The notes beneath the pieces are model-generated. The model saw only the letters and a program-made list of their open reading frames with translations, did not search any database and was not told the DNA's origin. A DNA stretch of 64,000 nt. Source: Bdellovibrionaceae bacterium UBA6502 (GTDB taxonomy: Bacteria; Bdellovibrionota; Bdellovibrionia; Bdellovibrionales; UBA840). How positions within the stretch are numbered: the first letter of the stretch is position 1; each line of letters begins with the position of its first letter. Shown piece by piece: positions 3,595-57,719 of this stretch. A program made the position numbers and the translations under genes. Location: assembly GCA_002436415.1 (NCBI GenBank), contig DJMA01000012.1, forward strand, positions 90,345 to 154,344, in the 5' to 3' direction.

Positions 3595-3994
3595 AAATGC
3601 TTTTAAATTTGCAGGCCTCGCAGCAGCTGGTGTATTGATTTTTTATGCAATCACCCGTCTATTGCCTAGCAATAATTTTAATCAAAACTTTTTAGGCAAC
3701 AACCTACTTATAATCAGCCTACCTATAGCAGCCTTTCTATCCGCTGTTTTAGGTGCAAGTTTCCCCAAAATTAACGCCTGGATTTTTAGCTTTCTTCTGA
3801 TCATTGGTACAGCTCACCTTAGCCTTTTTACAATGTTTCAATTAGAGTCGAGTAATCTTGACTCTGGTTTTGAGCTATTTTTAAAAACAGGAATCATCAG
3901 CGGAGCTGCCATACTGCATCTCTACCTACCAGTTAGTCTCGTTTTCTTTTTGTTGTCCATCGCGCTTGTGTTCTTGAGAAAGTATAAGTTTTAA
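3578..3994 (+). CDS. integral membrane hypothetical protein (about 4 TM segments)
   Basis: ORF track entry. Overlaps the upstream gene by 17 nt. Strongly hydrophobic segments. Confidence 0.6.
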   Translation: MTERFKNAFKFAGLAAAGVLIFYAITRLLPSNNFNQNFLGNNLLIISLPIAAFLSAVLGASFPKINAWIFSFLLIIGTAHLSLFTMFQLESSNLDSGFELFLKTGIISGAAILHLYLPVSLVFFLLSIALVFLRKYKF

Positions 3995-4002
3995 ACGAAA
4001 GC

Positions 4003-4036
4003 CTTCCTCGGTCATTCTCTAGGACTGAGGAAGTTT
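4003..4036 (+). terminator. possible terminator hairpin
   Basis: CTTCCTCGGTC ... GACTGAGGAAG stem followed by only TTT. Confidence 0.35.
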
Positions 4037-4185
4037 AAGGCTGAAAAGCAAAAGCAAAGAGAATAAAGTACCAAGGCCTTGCTCTTAAATTAATCAGTCA
4101 CAATACATAAGTCTTTAGGTTTAAAAAAAGGACCTTCAGCTTCTAGTTCCTATATGATAAGATTTTAAATCATACCGAGGAATGC

Positions 4186-5151
4186 ATGAAAACCCTATTT
4201 AGAGAATTAGAGAAAGTATATCGTTTAGTTGATAAGGTAAACGGACATGGCCGCGTCGAATTACTTGGCACTGTTGATGTGAAAGCACATCGTTTACCTA
4301 TTTATGGATTTCAATTTGGCTCAAAAGATCCAACGGCTCCAACCTTTGGACTCTTTGGTGGTTTACATGGCCTTGAAAAAATTGGTACAGAACTAGCGGT
4401 TTATTTTTTGTATAACCTAGTTGAGCGTCTTGAATGGAATAAGCAATTACAAGAACTACTCGAAAAAATTCGCGTTGTTTCCATCCCTCTTTTAAATCCA
4501 GGTGGAATGTATCTTGGAACTAGGTCCAATCCCAATGGTGTGGATCTAAACAGAAACTCTCCTTCCACCAGTGATGGAAAAAAACTATTTCTCGCTTCAG
4601 GTCATCGCCTAAGCCCTAACCTTCCATGGTATGGCGGTGTCAAAGACAAGTTAGAGTTTGAGAATGAAATCCTAGTAGAGTTTGTTAAAAAAAATATGCT
4701 CAACGCAAAGTTCTCATTGGCTTTAGATTTACACTCTGGTTTTGGCGTTAAAGATCGCCTCTGGTTTCCATACTCAAAAACCTCCGAGCCCTTCCCTTAC
4801 TACGACATTGCAAGCCGTATAAAAAATTTAGTCGACTCCAATATGAAGCACCATATTTACCAAATTGAACCTCAGGCTGATAGCTATATCATTGAAGGAG
4901 ATATTTGGGATCATTTGTTTGATATCCACTACAACACCAAAAATCATAAAGAGGATATCTTCGTTCCTTGGACTTTAGAAATGGGTTCGTGGATTTGGGT
5001 TAAGAAAAACCCTCTTCAGTTAATGAACATTGATGGAATGTTTAACCCTTACCGAGAGCATCGTTTTAAACGTGTAATGCGAAGGCATTGGCGCTTACTT
5101 GACCTTTATATGAATCTCTGTGCCAATCACGAGGGATGGTTGTATGAATAA
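4186..5151 (+). CDS. M14-family zinc carboxypeptidase-like protein (DUF2817-like)
   Basis: GGLHGLE (HxxE zinc motif) and NPNGVDLNRN, both typical of M14 peptidases. Confidence 0.7.
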   Translation: MKTLFRELEKVYRLVDKVNGHGRVELLGTVDVKAHRLPIYGFQFGSKDPTAPTFGLFGGLHGLEKIGTELAVYFLYNLVERLEWNKQLQELLEKIRVVSIPLLNPGGMYLGTRSNPNGVDLNRNSPSTSDGKKLFLASGHRLSPNLPWYGGVKDKLEFENEILVEFVKKNMLNAKFSLALDLHSGFGVKDRLWFPYSKTSEPFPYYDIASRIKNLVDSNMKHHIYQIEPQADSYIIEGDIWDHLFDIHYNTKNHKEDIFVPWTLEMGSWIWVKKNPLQLMNIDGMFNPYREHRFKRVMRRHWRLLDLYMNLCANHEGWLYE

Positions 5152-11041: not shown

Positions 11042-11210
11042 CAAATTAAAACTGGCCCCTTTAATTGCGGATAGACTTTAATAAGTATTGAAAAAGCTTT
11101 GTTTAAATTAATTTGTCCGAATTTTGACTTTCGTTGCAATGAATATAGTAAAGAAATTCAAGGCTTTAATGCTGTTTCATCCGCAATTAAAGGGGCCAGT
11201 TTTAAATTTG
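11042..11210 (+). repeat. TIR hairpin element, copy 1 (MITE-like)
   Basis: Arms at 11048-11072 and 11179-11203 are perfect reverse complements (AAAACTGGCCCCTTTAATTGCGGAT). The interior is 106 nt. Homologous copies occur at about 21355 and 57302. Confidence 0.85.
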
Positions 11211-11710
11211 CCGAAGTTCCAAGCCACGAGGAGCTCTATTCCACATTATAGCACGCAAATACCCAAAAAATTTAGGCAGCATTGATCTAAAACTAAGACT
11301 CGATAAATTTCCTATAAAATAAGAGCTGCTAATATAAGGGCCAAAAAGTAAAAGAATATTTTGATTCATTTTTACTATATTTATTTAAGAATTAAATAGG
11401 ATTTGAAATTCATTACGCTGAGTAGACAACTTGATCGTTACTTATCACCTCAGCTTATCAAAGCAATGGATCTGTTGACATCCTTTCTAAAACTGCTTAA
11501 TTATTAAACTTTTCCGTATTAGAAAGATTAGGCACTTTGAATTTTTTACCTATATAGTGCGCGAAAGCGCAGCTAAAATATATTATTTTAATTTACTTTT
11601 ACTGTAATGATTTCAGCGGCGGTGCGCCTCTCTTGTAATTACCCCCTCCCATCCCTCAAAATACGAACTATGAGATATGGTTATGTGTTGACGGAATTCA
11701 TGGGGGATAT

Positions 11711-13306
11711 TTGAAGGGGTTCATTCATTACATTTTGATTTTCACGGTGGGCTTCAGTCATTGGAGTTTCGCGGCTTCTAATAATTCCGCTTTAGGAAAA
11801 GATAGTCGGCGAAGCAATCAGGCTCAAGAGATCATCGAGAACAGCATAGCTCAAAATGAGTCTAAGGATGCTGACGTCCTTATTAATAGAAGTGTCATTC
11901 AAATGCCCGGTGAACCAGATCGTATGATCGAAGTCTTAACAACAGATGGGCCGGATGCATTAATTTTTGAAGAGGCACAAAAAGAGATTATCCAAGAACA
12001 AAAAATTCCTGAAAGCGACTTTATCAAAAGCATCGTTCAGTATCAAAACGGCCAACAATTTAGCGCCTTTAAAATGGACACTGAGAAGTGGCCAGAATTT
12101 AATGCCTTAGTACTTGCTCGTGTTAAACAGAAAAAAGAAGAAGCTTTACAGAAAGAAAGAGAAGAGTCTATTGCCAGAGCCGCAGATGCCTCAATGAAGA
12201 AAAAATCTGAGGTTTATCAAACTTGGCTAACTTTTAGTATTCGCTGGGGTCTTTCGGTTTATTTTTTCCAAACGATTGTTGATCCATCCAACTTTGAACT
12301 AGCAGTGATTAGTGGTGTTTCTTTTATAAACACGATGGTTTTAAATAACTTTATGCGAGGTTTTGAAAAAAGCTTCCAAACCATTGGACGTGTGGGTCTT
12401 GAAATTCCTCATCAACTGATGAGAGGCGGAGCTTATATTGGAGACCAGTTTCTTAATGACAAAGCTAGAGAGTTTTTAGCTTGGTTCCCTAGAAAATATA
12501 AAGAGAACATTTTAAACAATCACTTCGCGAAACAAACCGCAAATTTGGCTGGCTCCTTTGTTTTACAATCCACTTTTGTGGCAGCTTATTTAATCGCTAT
12601 GAATCTCGGTAGTCTTGGTTTTGAATCTGCAATCATGGAAAGTGGTGGCGGATCTTTGGCTGGGGTAGATGTATCACAACTTCCTCACGATTTTAGTTTC
12701 GATCGCTTTAAAGAAGCTCTATTTTCTGGTTACGCACAATTTAGTTGGGCAAAGGCTTGGGACTTTATTTGGATGCCTGAAAATTACCTTTTAGAAAAAA
12801 CTCTGGCTTTTACTATTTTCTCAAGATCTTGGGATGTGTATCGATTGAGATATCGTGAACAAGTGAGTAACCAAACCAAAGCAAATACTTTTGGTCGTTT
12901 AATGGGAGTTTTCTTCGCATTGATGACACCAGTAATTTACATTGGAGAAGAAGTGGTACGCGGATCTAGCACTAGCCCACTAGGCTACCTAGGAGTAATT
13001 TCCGTTGGTACTGTGGGAATCATGGGACTTGCCTTTGTCTACGGAGATGCTCCTAAATACCAAGAATACTTAAACGCACAAAAACAAAAAGTAAGTGATG
13101 CCCTTACTTCCTTTAGAAATTACTTAGGAAGACACGCTCGCGCAGTTGCTTTTGGGACTAAGCTAGGAATGGTAAATTTAGCTCACATGGCCGACGATTT
13201 ATACACGCGTACTAGTCGTAAAAACTGGGCGAATGTACCTGAAATGGCTTTTCATAGAATGATTGAAAATCCGCAAGGCTCTCGCTGTTCTTTAAGTAGC
13301 CTTTAA
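11711..13306 (+). CDS. hypothetical membrane protein (TTG start)
   Basis: Long ORF with a signal-like N-terminus (ILIFTVGFSHWSFA) and several hydrophobic segments in the C-terminal half. Confidence 0.6.
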   Translation: MKGFIHYILIFTVGFSHWSFAASNNSALGKDSRRSNQAQEIIENSIAQNESKDADVLINRSVIQMPGEPDRMIEVLTTDGPDALIFEEAQKEIIQEQKIPESDFIKSIVQYQNGQQFSAFKMDTEKWPEFNALVLARVKQKKEEALQKEREESIARAADASMKKKSEVYQTWLTFSIRWGLSVYFFQTIVDPSNFELAVISGVSFINTMVLNNFMRGFEKSFQTIGRVGLEIPHQLMRGGAYIGDQFLNDKAREFLAWFPRKYKENILNNHFAKQTANLAGSFVLQSTFVAAYLIAMNLGSLGFESAIMESGGGSLAGVDVSQLPHDFSFDRFKEALFSGYAQFSWAKAWDFIWMPENYLLEKTLAFTIFSRSWDVYRLRYREQVSNQTKANTFGRLMGVFFALMTPVIYIGEEVVRGSSTSPLGYLGVISVGTVGIMGLAFVYGDAPKYQEYLNAQKQKVSDALTSFRNYLGRHARAVAFGTKLGMVNLAHMADDLYTRTSRKNWANVPEMAFHRMIENPQGSRCSLSSL

Positions 13307-21262: not shown

Positions 21263-21354
21263 AGCCCATAACTTTAATGATCAAAGTGTTCAGTAAAACT
21301 GCCTTCATGCGTAAAATGCGTATTATTTACATAAATTCAGTCCTAGCTCTTTTA

Positions 21355-21505
21355 AAGTGGTCCCTTTAATTGCGGATAAAAGCTAAGAACTATGAGATAC
21401 CATTCCTAAAATTTAAAATGTCCCCATTTGATTTCGCTGTGAAATGAATACTGAAAAGGATTCCAAGAGTTTAAACAAACTCATCCGCAATTAAAGGGGC
21501 CAGGT
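21355..21505 (+). repeat. TIR hairpin element, copy 2 (left arm partly decayed)
   Basis: Left arm TGGTCCCTTTAATTGCGGAT (21358-21377). Right arm ATCCGCAATTAAAGGGGCCAG (21483-21503). The interior is 105 nt and is collinear with copy 1. Confidence 0.8.
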
Positions 21506-21666
21506 AACAGCTCTCACAAAAAAACTAGAGCTTTCTCATATTGAGACACTGCTCTGCAAAGCCCTGCCTCAGTCATCCCCTGTAAAACTATTAAACGTTA
21601 TTTAAGTTTCTAGGCAGCGTTTCAGCCAGATATCACGTTATTTCAAGTACTTAGATCACAAATCCT

Positions 21667-23110: not shown

Positions 23111-23137
23111 GCGCCACAGGAAGTGGTGCTTTTTTTG
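23111..23137 (+). terminator. rho-independent terminator
   Basis: GCGCCAC-AGGAA-GTGGTGC (one G-U pair) followed by T7. Confidence 0.7.
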
Positions 23138-23185
23138 TTTTTTGCTCTTACTCCTCGGTTTAGGTCTTCGAATGAGTCGGCCTTC

Positions 23186-23305
23186 TGAGAAATGTATTTT
23201 TTCAGAGGCGCTATTCCGGTCGCAGCCTTCGCTGCTCCCTGCCATCCTTGGGGCTTGTTGAATCCCATCCATGGGATTCAAAACTCTGAAAAAATACATT
23301 TCTCA
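23186..23305. repeat. GC-rich structured element closed by a perfect 22-bp inverted repeat
   Basis: 23186-23207 is the exact reverse complement of 23284-23305. Inner hairpins are GCAGC-CTTC-GCTGC (23222-23235) and TTGAATCCCAT-CC-ATGGGATTCAA (23258-23281). Confidence 0.75.
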
Positions 23306-23460
23306 TACGGCCTCTTTCTCACTTCTTTAATTCTAAATCTCGTCGTCTATTTTTTAATTTTGCTGGTGCGGGGGTATGGGGCGGCTTTGCCGCCGGTGGC
23401 TGTTTGATTCGCTTTGCTCTCAAAAGTGCTTTTGTTTTTGGCGTTTATTTTGAGGGGGAT

Positions 23461-23970
23461 TTATCGTTTTAGGCGGATGCCGAATACTACGGCTAGGCTT
23501 ATTAGGCCGCCTATAGCTAATGGTGGTTTTCCAGCGAATGTACCAAAGAATAGAGCGGCGCTTGATGCTAGTATAGCGAAAGTGGTCCACTTTGGTGGCT
23601 TCTCAAATTTTCTTTCCGATCTTTGGCTTAACATTTGAAAACTTGCCAGTTGAATGATTTTATCCTGCATCTTTTTAGAGGTTTCATCTAATGGATTTAC
23701 TTCCATCATTTTACGATACTGCTGAGAAGCGAAACTTAGCTTGTTATATTGGAGACTGCTTTGAATAAACTGCTCATGAAGAGCTTCGTTTTGGTAATCT
23801 TGAACAATTTTTTTCCACAGCTCTAGCAAAACACTATTTCCCATAACTTGTCTGTCGGGAGAACTTTCCTTATCACTAATTTTGCTTAAAATAATCCCAC
23901 ATGAAGGACATTCATTCATATCCTTCGTAAGATTATAAGAACATTTTGGACAAGTGAGTGGCTGCATCAA
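23461..23970 (-). CDS. zinc-ribbon protein with a C-terminal membrane anchor
   Basis: CPKCSYNL...CPSCG at the N-terminus and two hydrophobic segments at the C-terminus. Confidence 0.6.
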   Translation of the reverse strand: MMQPLTCPKCSYNLTKDMNECPSCGIILSKISDKESSPDRQVMGNSVLLELWKKIVQDYQNEALHEQFIQSSLQYNKLSFASQQYRKMMEVNPLDETSKKMQDKIIQLASFQMLSQRSERKFEKPPKWTTFAILASSAALFFGTFAGKPPLAIGGLISLAVVFGIRLKR

Positions 23971-47299: not shown

Positions 47300-50200
47300 A
47301 TGCCTAAGACATCACGTTCTATAAATTTTAGCTTCCTATTTGTTATACTTTCTTTAAGTATAGCTCCTTTATTTCAGAACTGTTCGAGCCAAATAGATTT
47401 TGGTCAGACAGATAATTTTGCCTTAGAGCAAGGTTATGCGGAATTGGTAGATTTTTATATCGATCCAAATTCTTGGGATGCAAAACCAAACATTAATGTA
47501 GTCGCAATCGTGGATAACTCCAATTCCATGAGTCCGATCCAAGAAAAAGTGGCTAGCGGTTTGGAGCAATCCCTTGATCCGTTAAACCAGTTTGCAGGTC
47601 GATTAGAGCTTTACACAACAACCCAAGGTTTAGATCCTGTTTTTACAAATAGAAACGAAGAAGATCTGAAACTTTCGGTAGTAAAAGAAATTCTTCCTTA
47701 TAAAGACAGTGATGATGCTGATGAGTTCATTGAGGCCTACCGCCTTCCAGCTTCTTTCACTAAAGACTCTTCTGGAACCAGAAGATCTCTTTACTACAAT
47801 CCAGACAACCTTGAGTCTGTAAAACAAAGTTTCGGACAAAGCATTCGTGAACTTGGTACTTTGGGATCTAGTGACGAACAAGGTATCTGTACTTTAATGA
47901 GAAGTATTGCGAGTCAAAGTGAAGAAGAGCAAACACAACATGCGTTTGTGCTAGTGAGTAATGAGGACGACGCTACTGATATTTCTTCTTGTTTAGACCA
48001 AATTGAAAACTACAAAGTCGTAAGTGATGGAAGTGGCTTTCAAGACTGTACCCAAGCTGACCTTGGGAGACAAGACCGTCCTAACTGTATCGCTCAAAAT
48101 AAATTGAATGTTACTACTACAGATTATAAGACAAAACTTTTTGCACGTTACGATACTACGCAAAACCACTATGCCGTGCAATCTGATAGTATTCGTAGAA
48201 ACAATGTTGCAATCAAACTAAATTTAAAACGATATGGTTATAAGCAAGACACTAGATCTTGTGATCTACAACTAAAGAAAAGCATTGCGAAAAAAGACTT
48301 AAAATTGAATTGGGCAAAGAAGAAATCAAAATGGAAAATGCAGTACCAACAAAACCGCGTTATTCTAACCGCCTCTCGAAAAGGTGTTTACAACTACGAG
48401 GGTAGAAACTTTGAAGAATATTTCGAAGAGAACTTAGGTACCTATGAAGCCAATAGCTGTAGTGATGTTCGCAGCACTTGTAACTCTTCAGACCTTGCCA
48501 AATACACTGGGAACTACCAAATCAATGCTGATGGCACCATGGTTCCCGCTGAGCTAACTAACACTTGTAATGTTCTTTGTACGGAGACTACAGCGGTTTG
48601 GAAAGACCAAACCAGCTACCAAAATGTATACGCTAGTTGTGAGCAAAATTTTGAAAACAACCAACTAAGAGCTGGTAACAACATAGGAAACGTACCTAAC
48701 TGTAGTTCTGCCAACTGTCGTTTTCAATGTTCTAACCTATCTAATGAATCCCAATCCCCTATCTTAATTGCGGATGATAAAAATGGAAGCTGTGACCAAG
48801 ATCATGGTATCAACCTGGCAGATGTGAGTTGTACTAACTCTATGAACTGCCAAGCTTTTTGTGCTCAGGACAATGTGGTTTGTAATTCGAACCTATCTTG
48901 TAGCGCCGACAACGATGAGAGCTTAATTACTAGTAGTGGTTATAGTGGTGACAACTGTGATAGTTCAATTAGCGATAGTTTGAAAAACTCAGCCTTCACC
49001 TCTTCGCAAAGAAGTGGTTGTGGATCGACTTATTCATGTACTTATAGTGTTATCAACTCAAGTGGTTCTGCTTCAAGATTCACTGCACTCACTAATTATG
49101 TACGAGGCAAATGTAGCGCCGAAGACGATGCTGCGGCACAAAGTAAGTTAGATTCCGAAGTACCAAACTGTCAAAACTGTACAGCCGTTTGTAGTAACGG
49201 AACTTCTTCAAACTACAGTGTTAACGGTGGATACTCACTAGACAATGTTTGCCTTCCAAGTACAAATGGAACAAAGTACAGCGGCTTTGAAAGCTATATG
49301 TCTAGTCTACAATCAGAGGATTTGAGAGACATAGAAATTGGTAACAATGACTTTGCTGCTAAATTGGGTGAGCTAAGTGCGGATGAATTAAAATATTTAA
49401 ATATCAACTGCTCTACGGCAAGCTATAAGAAAAAACTGAGTGGTAACAATATCGTGGATCTTGGCGATGCCTCGAACTATTCGGAAACAGCTTGTAGTGA
49501 CTCTCACTCTTCTCTAGTTTCCAACCTAAACTCTTGGTTTAACTCTAACACTGGCACAAGCAGAAGTACTTCTAATACTTCTAATATGAAATGTTATGTT
49601 TATGAAGAACCTACCCAGATTATTACAAAGAACAACGTAGTTGTTAAAGATGAATGGGACTTTGATTTGTCTAGTTCCAAGATGGTTTATAGCAATAACT
49701 GTTCTGCAGCCATACCTAGTGAGTACCGAGACCAATTGGGATTCCCTAATGGTGCCGTAAACACTTATTGTGAATTAAATCGAGCAGAAGATAATTTGAG
49801 TGCGCAGTGTTCTAAGAACGAAGCAATGCTTCGAGCCGGTGCCACACAAGAAGAACTTCGAAACGTTGCTGAAGCAATTTGTGATGCCAATTTAAATCTA
49901 GAGGACGCAGATCAAATTAGTTACAGTAACTTTTCTAGCGTAGTAAAAGGTCAGTATCCAGTAGATGTTCCAGGCGGAAGTGTGATCAATGTGAAAGACA
50001 AATACCCTCACCTTCAAGCTCTAGACGCTGCTAGTATTAAGAATGCCATTCAAGTTCAGCTAGGAACCTTAGAAGGAAGTAATTTTGCCTCCTTCGTGAC
50101 TCCTCCTGAAAACTCACAAGCTTTCGCTAAATGTGAGGAAGAAGCAGCCTCTTATAATCCAGAGGACCCGAACTACAATCCTTTTGCCGAAGGAGCTTTG

Positions 50201-57152: not shown

Positions 57153-57301
57153 GAGAACAACTTGCGGGATTTTAGTCCTTTTGGGTACAAATATGTTGGT
57201 TTTTAAAATATTTGCCTGAATTCATTTGCAAATTGCTAGCGAAAAACTTTAGTCCGAAGATTCTATTTTTAAGGAAAAAGCTTTCTTCTTTTTGAAGCCT
57301 T

Positions 57302-57456
57302 AAAACTGGCCTACTTAATTGCGGATGGATTTATGCTAAGTTCGTAAAATCACTATTTGTATAGCTTGCACATTTAAACGTAATTCGGACGTTTTTAAAT
57401 AAACTAATTATTTCTTGGGATTATGTATTTCTATCCGCAATTAAGGGGGCCAGTTT
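57302..57456 (-). repeat. TIR hairpin element, copy 3 (inverted orientation)
   Basis: Arms AAAACTGGCCTACTTAATTGCGGAT (57302-57326) and ATCCGCAATTAAGGGGGCCAGTTT (57433-57456). The interior is 106 nt and aligns to copies 1 and 2 only as its reverse complement. Confidence 0.8.
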
Positions 57457-57719
57457 ATGAAACCTCTGATTAACTCAAAAATACCTAATCCAAATGCCCA
57501 AAAGGCTGAAACCCATCCATAAACATTAGATCAATACAAAAAAGACATTAACAAAGGAGAATAGCTTGGGTGCAAACTGATATGTTAAGTAACTACACAG
57601 TCTTAGCAATTTTATAGGCCTGCCAAAATTGTCCTACAACTAAAGCCAATTGTGTTAAAATCCGCATTGGCTTTGGGATCAATCCTAAGCTTTGGGACCT
57701 ATAAGGAGTACGGGAGAAT

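Follow-up and report, generated by a model that had tools for sequence, protein, structure and literature searches.

A gene-less repeat family of marine Bdellovibrionota that is very probably a MITE derived from an IS1-like insertion sequence

Three copies of a short repeat with inverted ends are present in the 64,000-nucleotide stretch of DNA of Bdellovibrionaceae bacterium UBA6502 that was analyzed here (hereafter, the window). With high confidence, we regard them as members of an IS1-like-derived MITE family, that is, as gene-less remnants of mobile DNA and not as a new RNA or regulatory device. This confidence extends, as part of the whole MITE reading, to the view that the short elements are deletion derivatives which retain only the cis-acting ends of an insertion sequence (IS).

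The three elements have a size of ~156 bp each, with terminal inverted repeats (arms) of 20–30 nt and interiors of 105–106 nt (Table 1). An earlier, sequence-only reading of this DNA had described three pairs of arms separated by 106, 105 and 106 nt. All coordinates and sequences of the arms were recovered by direct reading and with a repeat finder, and the same interior lengths were obtained, with that of copy 3 being 106 nt if measured between its GGAT/ATCC arm ends. Copy 3 was detected by nhmmer with an E-value of 2.3e-31, on the minus strand relative to the orientation of the model. In copy 1, the termini read (T)AAAACTGG...CCAGTTTT(A), the IRR-side arm adjoins the GTCCGAA core, and the IRL-to-IRR direction of the parent IS corresponds to the minus strand. 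The cores of the three copies are placed at a common offset, 42–43 nt inside one arm, an offset shared by most copies of the family; its constancy, already pointed out in the sequence-only reading, was found in copies 1 and 2 and in the reverse complement of copy 3.

Table 1. Positions, within the window, of the three elements and of their arms, cores and flanking repeats.
Feature	Position	Strand	Remarks
MITE copy 1, complete	11047-11204	-	nhmmer E=7.6e-35
MITE copy 2, complete, outer arm ends partly decayed	21353-21508	-	nhmmer E=3.7e-29
MITE copy 3, complete, flipped relative to copies 1 and 2	57301-57457	+	
Copy 1 arms (repeat finder)	11043-11072 / 11179-11208		30 nt, 97% complementary; 106 nt between
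Copy 2 arms (repeat finder)	21358-21377 / 21483-21502		20 nt, 95% complementary; 105 nt between
Copy 3 arms (repeat finder)	57303-57329 / 57430-57456		27 nt, 89% complementary
Copy 1 terminal inverted repeat, IRR side	11048-11072	+	exact reverse complement of 11179-11203
Copy 1 terminal inverted repeat, IRL side	11179-11203	+	TAAAG/CTAAG motif ~10 nt inside
Copy 1 subterminal core TGTCCGAAT	11114-11122	+	
Copy 2 subterminal core TGTCCCCAT, degenerate	21419-21427	+	
Copy 3 subterminal core	57383-57391	-	ATTCGGACG on plus strand, CGTCCGAAT on minus strand
Copy 3 target duplication, left copy TGAAGCCT	57293-57300	+	right copy TGAAACCT at 57458-57465
AAATT, left half of 5-nt direct repeat at copy 1	11043-11047	+	right half at 11204-11208

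When up to three mismatches were allowed, the 15-mer arm core gave 11 matches, compared with 3.0 expected from shuffled sequences, and 11 matches were reached in none of 100 shuffles. A profile HMM of the family, run on the 64 kb window, returned exactly three copies, with E-values ranging from 1e-29 to 1e-35. An additional arm-like match at 48763–48787, located inside a long ORF (E = 0.098), was treated as chance. Each of the three copies separates two divergent ORFs, one on the minus and one on the plus strand, whose 5' ends face the element. Conserved coding capacity is absent, in agreement with the sequence-only reading, since only short ORFs cross the elements and these are different in each copy.

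The window has a G+C content of 38% and includes genes for RmuC, ThrE, a DUF4423/HTH protein and an S8 peptidase, a set indicative of Bdellovibrionota. Contig DBHF01000024 in the Tara Oceans MAG GCA_002296085.1 carries the identical sequence. Also present in the window is another repeat of ~315 nt (23125–23440), located between the S8 peptidase gene and the ORF 23461–23970. This repeat is 87–88% identical to two tandem copies in XB_MAG598 (L004:1136–1754), has inverted arms of its own (23179–23207 / 23284–23312), and overlaps a sub-threshold match on the minus strand (23172–23319) to the Rfam TwoAYGGAY RNA (RF01731; 30.4 bits, below the gathering score of 43; E = 0.007). Either a further mobile element or a structured RNA may account for this repeat. 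Furthermore, the minus-strand ORF 29946–30941 matches the PBECR2 nuclease domain of the phage Barnase/EndoU/colicin-like toxin type (E = 1.6e-14), and may represent a toxin or defence-related gene unrelated to the MITEs.

A scan with a single 19-nt arm against one genome per species yielded 53 loci, nearly all of them from the Bdellovibrionota MAGs XB_MAG598, Co_bin.56 and HKST-UBA07, with many of them at contig ends, as is expected for a repeat. One of the XB_MAG598 loci (L050:3808–4820) harbors perfect arms 985 bp apart and a single enclosed ORF (3882–4754, minus strand, 290 aa), which together make up an element of ~1013 bp with arms of ~25 nt. These arms show no mismatches to the 15-nt arm core of the window (CCTTTAATTGCGGAT), and the outer arm AAAACTGGCC also matches. 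Two contigs of 1.1–1.2 kb from Tara and ACIN marine metagenomes (L061 and L062) similarly carry a full IS with the same arms and a transposase ORF 80–84% identical to that of L050, so that the size of the ORF across the three loci is 287–290 aa. In 11 further loci, tblastn revealed pieces of the transposase immediately inside the arms, at contig ends. Such ORF fragments next to arms where contigs end indicate that the IS is present in multiple copies and breaks assemblies; repeat contigs of ~1 kb are usually lost in MAG binning. The full-length IS is absent from the window, in which tblastn with the transposase ORF gave no matches. The search proposed in the sequence-only reading, for a transposase gene with these ends on either side, was therefore positive, and the finding of this gene lends strong support to the MITE interpretation put forward there. 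Judging by these sequence matches, the arms of the window elements are the ends of a ~1 kb insertion sequence of marine Bdellovibrionota.

With regard to the classification of the enclosed ORF, the L050 product matched the NCBIfam model for IS1 family transposases (NF033558) with an E-value of 2e-13 and 50.6 bits, half of the curated cut-off of 100, and did so exclusively within residues 7–149, that is, in its N-terminal half. It also matched an IS1/IS1595 zinc-domain model, while a Pfam scan of the parent transposase gave no match to a transposase model. The 20 homologues that were aligned all matched the IS1 model far below the cut-off (best E = 4e-17). Homologues with E < 1e-5 amounted to 3282, mostly on contigs of ~1 kb; a few of them bear the name 'IS1 family transposase' assigned by the NCBI pipeline, and the majority are named 'hypothetical'. 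Within the annotated plasmids, the sole annotated collection covered, tblastn with the transposase produced only weak N-terminal matches to IS1595-family genes.

The alignment of the 20 homologues showed the invariant positions CxxC..CxxC, D117, D197, N243-H244 and R250. In the AlphaFold model (pLDDT of 84), an RNase H-like core is predicted (beta1-3/alpha/beta4/alpha/beta5/alpha), in which the first strand bears D117, D197 follows strand four, and N243 occupies the helix that bears the glutamate in DDE enzymes; helices come after the CxxC..CxxC motif. The best PDB matches of this model were the ISCth4 transposase, retroviral integrases, TnsB, Mu, Hermes and Mos1. The parent IS resembles IS1 and IS1595 in its length of ~1.0 kb, its inverted repeats of ~25 nt, its predicted zinc finger plus HTH, its predicted RNase H-like core and a target duplication of 8–9 bp, the latter measured here on MITE copies. 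It differs from IS1 in that it has one ORF instead of insA and insB' joined by a frameshift, in a score below the curated threshold, and in the invariant N243, instead of E, at the third catalytic position. In combination with R at +7, this asparagine resembles the DDN(K) variants known from IS1595 rather than IS1. Based on the predicted fold and the conserved residues, we conclude that the parent ORF probably encodes a real DDE-type transposase which would be a distant relative of the IS1/IS1595 group without being a clean member of either family. As an observation of its own, the transposase family (L050:3882–4754, P0001–P0120) comprises more than 3000 homologues without a Pfam model, with D-D-N in place of the canonical DDE.

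The relationship between the short elements and the IS was assessed by placing each MITE half next to the corresponding IS end, and only in this way did the shared motifs become visible. On the 5' (IRL) side, IS and MITEs alike present the arm, followed by 8–10 nt, CTAAG, (T)TGAA and TTGCA, a stretch that in the IS runs into the ATG of the transposase gene; the first ~28 nt inside IRL are similar between both types of element. On the 3' (IRR) side, the arm is in both cases followed by the GTCCGRA core, located 42–43 nt inside the arm in the MITEs and just after the stop codon in the IS. In particular, GTCCGGA was found 37 nt inside IRR in all four 3' ends of full-length IS in XB_MAG598 (L050, L019, L033 and L051). 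In the MITEs of Co_bin.56, the GTCCGRA core was missing on the side that should correspond to IRR. Local alignment of the MITE interiors with the complete IS of L050 scored at noise level because the non-coding ends of the IS are themselves highly diverged outside the motifs, even where the transposases are 87–95% identical. Hence, the evidence for homology between MITEs and IS comes from the fixed positions of the motifs and from the ~28 nt of similarity inside IRL.

According to the mechanism that we propose, a MITE would keep the terminal inverted repeat of ~25 nt, (T)AAAACTGGCCCCTTTAATTGCGGAT, at both ends, as well as the non-coding stretches that lead from IRL to the transposase start and from the stop codon to IRR. 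The transposase produced by a full-length copy elsewhere in the genome would bind both arms in trans, synapse them and insert the element into AT-rich intergenic DNA, with duplication of 8–9 bp of the target. The copies in the window would then be older insertions, with the arms still perfect in copy 1, and with decay in both the arms and the target duplications of copies 2 and 3. We infer this trans-mobilization by the cognate transposase, as we do the functions of the subterminal motifs and whatever influence the elements may have on neighboring genes.

Signs of transposition were detected in the sequences that flank the elements. In a first set of 32 non-tandem elements, 8 were bordered by 8-mers at least 7/8 identical which directly abutted the termini (T)AAAACTGG...CCAGTTTA, compared with 1.1 expected (p < 1e-4, flanks permuted). 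An independent metagenome set gave a similar result (5 out of 26 elements with 8-mers at least 7/8 identical, 1.5 expected, p = 0.008), and included the perfect 9-mer duplications TAAGCTTTT, TAAGTTTTA and TTAGTTTTT. The check for target-site duplications that had been proposed from the sequence alone thus revealed enrichment in both sets. Overall, intact duplications of 8–9 bp are found in ~20–25% of the copies, with ~75–80% being devoid of them. Within the window, the repeats at copy 3 are identical at 7 of 8 positions and lie directly at the termini, and those flanking copy 2, AGCTCTTT (21345–21352) and AGCTCTCA (21509–21516), match at 6 of 8 positions, i.e., AGCTCT(TT/CA). The AAATT repeat at copy 1, where the best 8-mer matches at 5 of 8 positions, may be a decayed target-site duplication or a product of chance. 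No clear target duplication was observed in the complete IS copies with both flanks (L050 and L062).

Regarding copy number and dispersal, the window accounts for three copies, the three MAGs for more than 35 and Tara/JGI metagenomes for 30, the latter being the true family members among the 33 matches of the metagenome scan. A recent burst is indicated by the 11 copies of the Co_bin.56 MAG, which are 94% identical and inserted in either orientation. For each of the window subfamilies, XB_MAG598 and Tara contigs hold sister copies at loci unrelated to those of the window; for example, the Tara copy L071:4033–4162, which was assigned by eye in the alignment to the subfamily of copy 3, is found at another locus. 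XB_MAG598 and the window share a size of 135–139 bp between the 15-nt arm cores, the elements of Co_bin.56 measure 126 bp, and HKST-UBA07 has two sizes, 180 and 231 bp. None of 37 placements was inside an ORF, all of them being intergenic.

All four assemblies of the species carry copy 1 in one and the same orientation, and in the three besides that of the window it is 98–100% identical. In three contigs of the nearest relatives (L058–L060), whose RmuC is 69–71% identical to that of the window, the syntenic spacer that separates the RmuC gene from the ~540 aa gene does not contain copy 1. The search for a base-precise empty site for copy 1 in L058–L060 gave none, as synteny is kept in these loci but the spacers are too diverged and align poorly. 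Likewise, megablast and blastn of the window against all fetched loci revealed no locus with shared flanks that would point to orthologous copies across species. Separately from the element, L058–L060 share with the window a conserved block at ~11600–11662, upstream of the ORF 11711–13306 (minus-strand sequence TATTTTGRGGGATGGRAGGGGG ... CTGAAATCATTACAG), within an otherwise unalignable syntenic spacer; this block may be a 5' leader or a regulatory site of the ~540 aa gene.

Two further arrangements were noticed among the family members. Head-to-tail pairs of elements separated by ~10–30 nt are present at L005:1968–2290, L032:640–960, L044:5184–5440, L071:4033–4326 and L085:6176–6470; some of them are near-identical duplicates that include a few flanking bases and others mix two subfamilies, which suggests insertion beside existing copies or unequal recombination. 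In HKST-UBA07, larger relatives with interiors of 150 or 201 nt (L014:220–419, L041:3046–3245 and L035:1–250) possess an extra perfect internal hairpin, TTTCTCGAAAACTTTGTTTTCGAGAAA, and have retained the GTCCGA core. It seems that every genome has a variant of its own, with a fixed size.

A distinctive property of the family is that the length of the interior is fixed in spite of its divergent sequence. In the set formed by the window and XB_MAG598 copies, the arms share a pairwise identity of 89% and the interiors one of 43%, with shuffled controls at 28%; the 60–70% interior identity given in the sequence-only reading was therefore somewhat generous with respect to this family-wide mean. The interiors of this set measure 105–109 nt (106 nt in 11 out of 19), and those of the 30 metagenome members measure 106 nt in 27 cases, 105 nt in two and 104 nt in one, so that 104–109 nt holds for 49 of the 49 members examined; other fixed sizes of 96, 150 and 201 nt are encountered in other genomes. 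Conserved arms and a fixed length around interiors that are only ~43% identical exceed what simple neutral decay of dead copies would produce. Selection acting on transposition offers the simplest explanation: only those copies with intact arms and properly spaced subterminal sites would propagate, and the sampled copies would stem from numerous lineages that are old yet still active. This explanation is supported by the full-length IS, whose ends combine conserved spacing with free sequence in the same way. That the length lock at 106±2 nt goes beyond a by-product of transposase recognition, and reflects either a hard geometric rule of end synapsis (helical phasing, fixed subterminal sites) or an exaptation by the host, is in our view unlikely.

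Exaptation in its fuller form, in which the MITE was domesticated and the host maintains the arms and the 106-nt spacing after a transpositional origin, is considered improbable. The function of such an element might be that of a 25–30 bp RNA hairpin for RNase III, if co-transcribed, or that of a cruciform or looping site which modulates the neighbors; RNase III processing has been shown for the hairpins of Correia elements. The conservation of arms and length just described would fit domestication, as would the folding of the whole element (z = -8.95 compared with shuffles) and the location of all three window copies upstream of two divergent genes. However, the same conserved arms and spacing are also present at the non-coding ends of the full-length IS, which points to requirements of the transposase and not to a host function. 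Moreover, 32 classifiable placements were distributed as 15 tandem, 10 divergent and 7 convergent, approximately as expected from the shares of intergenic length (50%, 33% and 16%, respectively). Context therefore tracks intergenic length, with no preference for divergent promoters, and the divergent-gene location that the sequence-only reading had described, correct for the three window copies, is not a property of the family. Covariation was absent beyond the arms, an arm substitution (TTGCGGAT to TTACGGAT) is already present in a strain 98% identical, and scans of the three spacers for sigma-70 promoters and terminators found nothing conserved inside the elements.

The stability of the hairpin and its dispersal in intergenic regions might also be expected from a structured small RNA gene, or from a REPIN-type hairpin mobilized by a RAYT (HuH) transposase, both of which we hold to be very improbable. 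The interior alone folds at z = -0.37, so that all of the stability of the whole element comes from its arms. From 19 copies, RNAalifold predicted no helix in the interior and recovered just that of the arms (covariation term, -0.1), and the single 'compensatory' column (T:A vs C:G) corresponds to two arm variants of the IS. An Rfam scan of the whole window returned no matches at the gathering score and, when the element was scanned under permissive settings, nothing meaningful appeared (generic plant miRNA hairpin models with 20–31 bits compared with cut-offs of 70–195, and the snR47 snoRNA with 26.2 bits compared with a cut-off of 61). In addition, copies are found in both orientations relative to the neighboring genes. 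With structure in the interior at chance level, the proposal that a long-stem sRNA or a promoter cruciform would fit equally well as a MITE is not supported. As for REPINs, the arms do not look by eye like REP-type self-palindromes, and the associated gene is predicted to have an RNase H-like (DDE) fold instead of HuH. Inverted repeats around a short segment between divergent genes, the flipped interior of copy 3 and the many assemblies that break at the arms would also be compatible with an inverton, in which the arms serve as recombination sites of an invertase and the interior flips to switch the expression of the flanking genes. To this possibility we assign almost no credence, because the arms flank a DDE-type transposase gene in the full-length copies, and because none of nine pairwise comparisons between contigs that share flanks (4 loci, independent assemblies) was inverted. 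Target-site duplications as well as convergent and tandem contexts also speak against it, the scans of the three spacers showed no conserved promoter in the elements, and Pfam detected no recombinase in the 20 mid-sized window ORFs that were scanned.

The reading as an IS-derived MITE places the family next to previously described systems, of which the closest analogue in behavior is the MITEAba12/ISAba12 pair of Acinetobacter (PMC6382973). MITEAba12 has a length of 113 bp in 90% of its copies, shows target duplications in 40% of them, and carries outward promoters that were predicted and found to be transcribed (PMC6382973). Both families are gene-less, AT-rich, multi-copy and near-fixed in length, have arms that match a co-occurring IS, insert into AT-rich intergenic DNA and keep target duplications in a minority of copies, 40% there and ~20–25% here (PMC6382973). 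The present elements differ in the family of the parent IS, in arm sequence, in host phylum (Bdellovibrionota) and in size (~156 bp); furthermore, their interiors are far more diverged (~43% identical) with the length still fixed, and no outward promoter was identified in them.

The elements had also been likened to the Correia elements (CREE/NEMIS), and in kind this comparison is correct, given that both are ~100–160 bp long, have inverted repeats of ~26 nt, are intergenic and often near promoters, and can fold into long hairpins when transcribed. The Correia target duplication is the dinucleotide TA, and these elements are known only from Neisseria and are not known to have a cognate transposase. 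The comparison does not extend to the details: the duplications observed here are 8–9 bp long and varied in sequence, an IS1/IS1595-like parent IS that bears a cognate transposase was found, and the arms appear to differ in sequence from the Correia repeat. Full-text literature searches retrieved no described MITE in Bdellovibrio-like bacteria. We consider the family as previously undescribed and, in kind, as a standard IS-derived bacterial MITE.

The practical value of these results is modest, and one candidate for a novel RNA or regulatory hairpin is struck from the list. For the genomics of Bdellovibrionota, they describe a repeat family that fragments MAG assemblies, with many contigs ending exactly in its arms, and link it to a large transposase family whose members are mostly annotated as 'hypothetical'. 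The fixed length amid sequence drift poses a small, clean puzzle about the synapsis of very short elements. The family also offers natural comparative data on the cis-requirements of its transposase, namely, arms of 25 nt, CTAAG, GTCCGRA and a fixed spacing.
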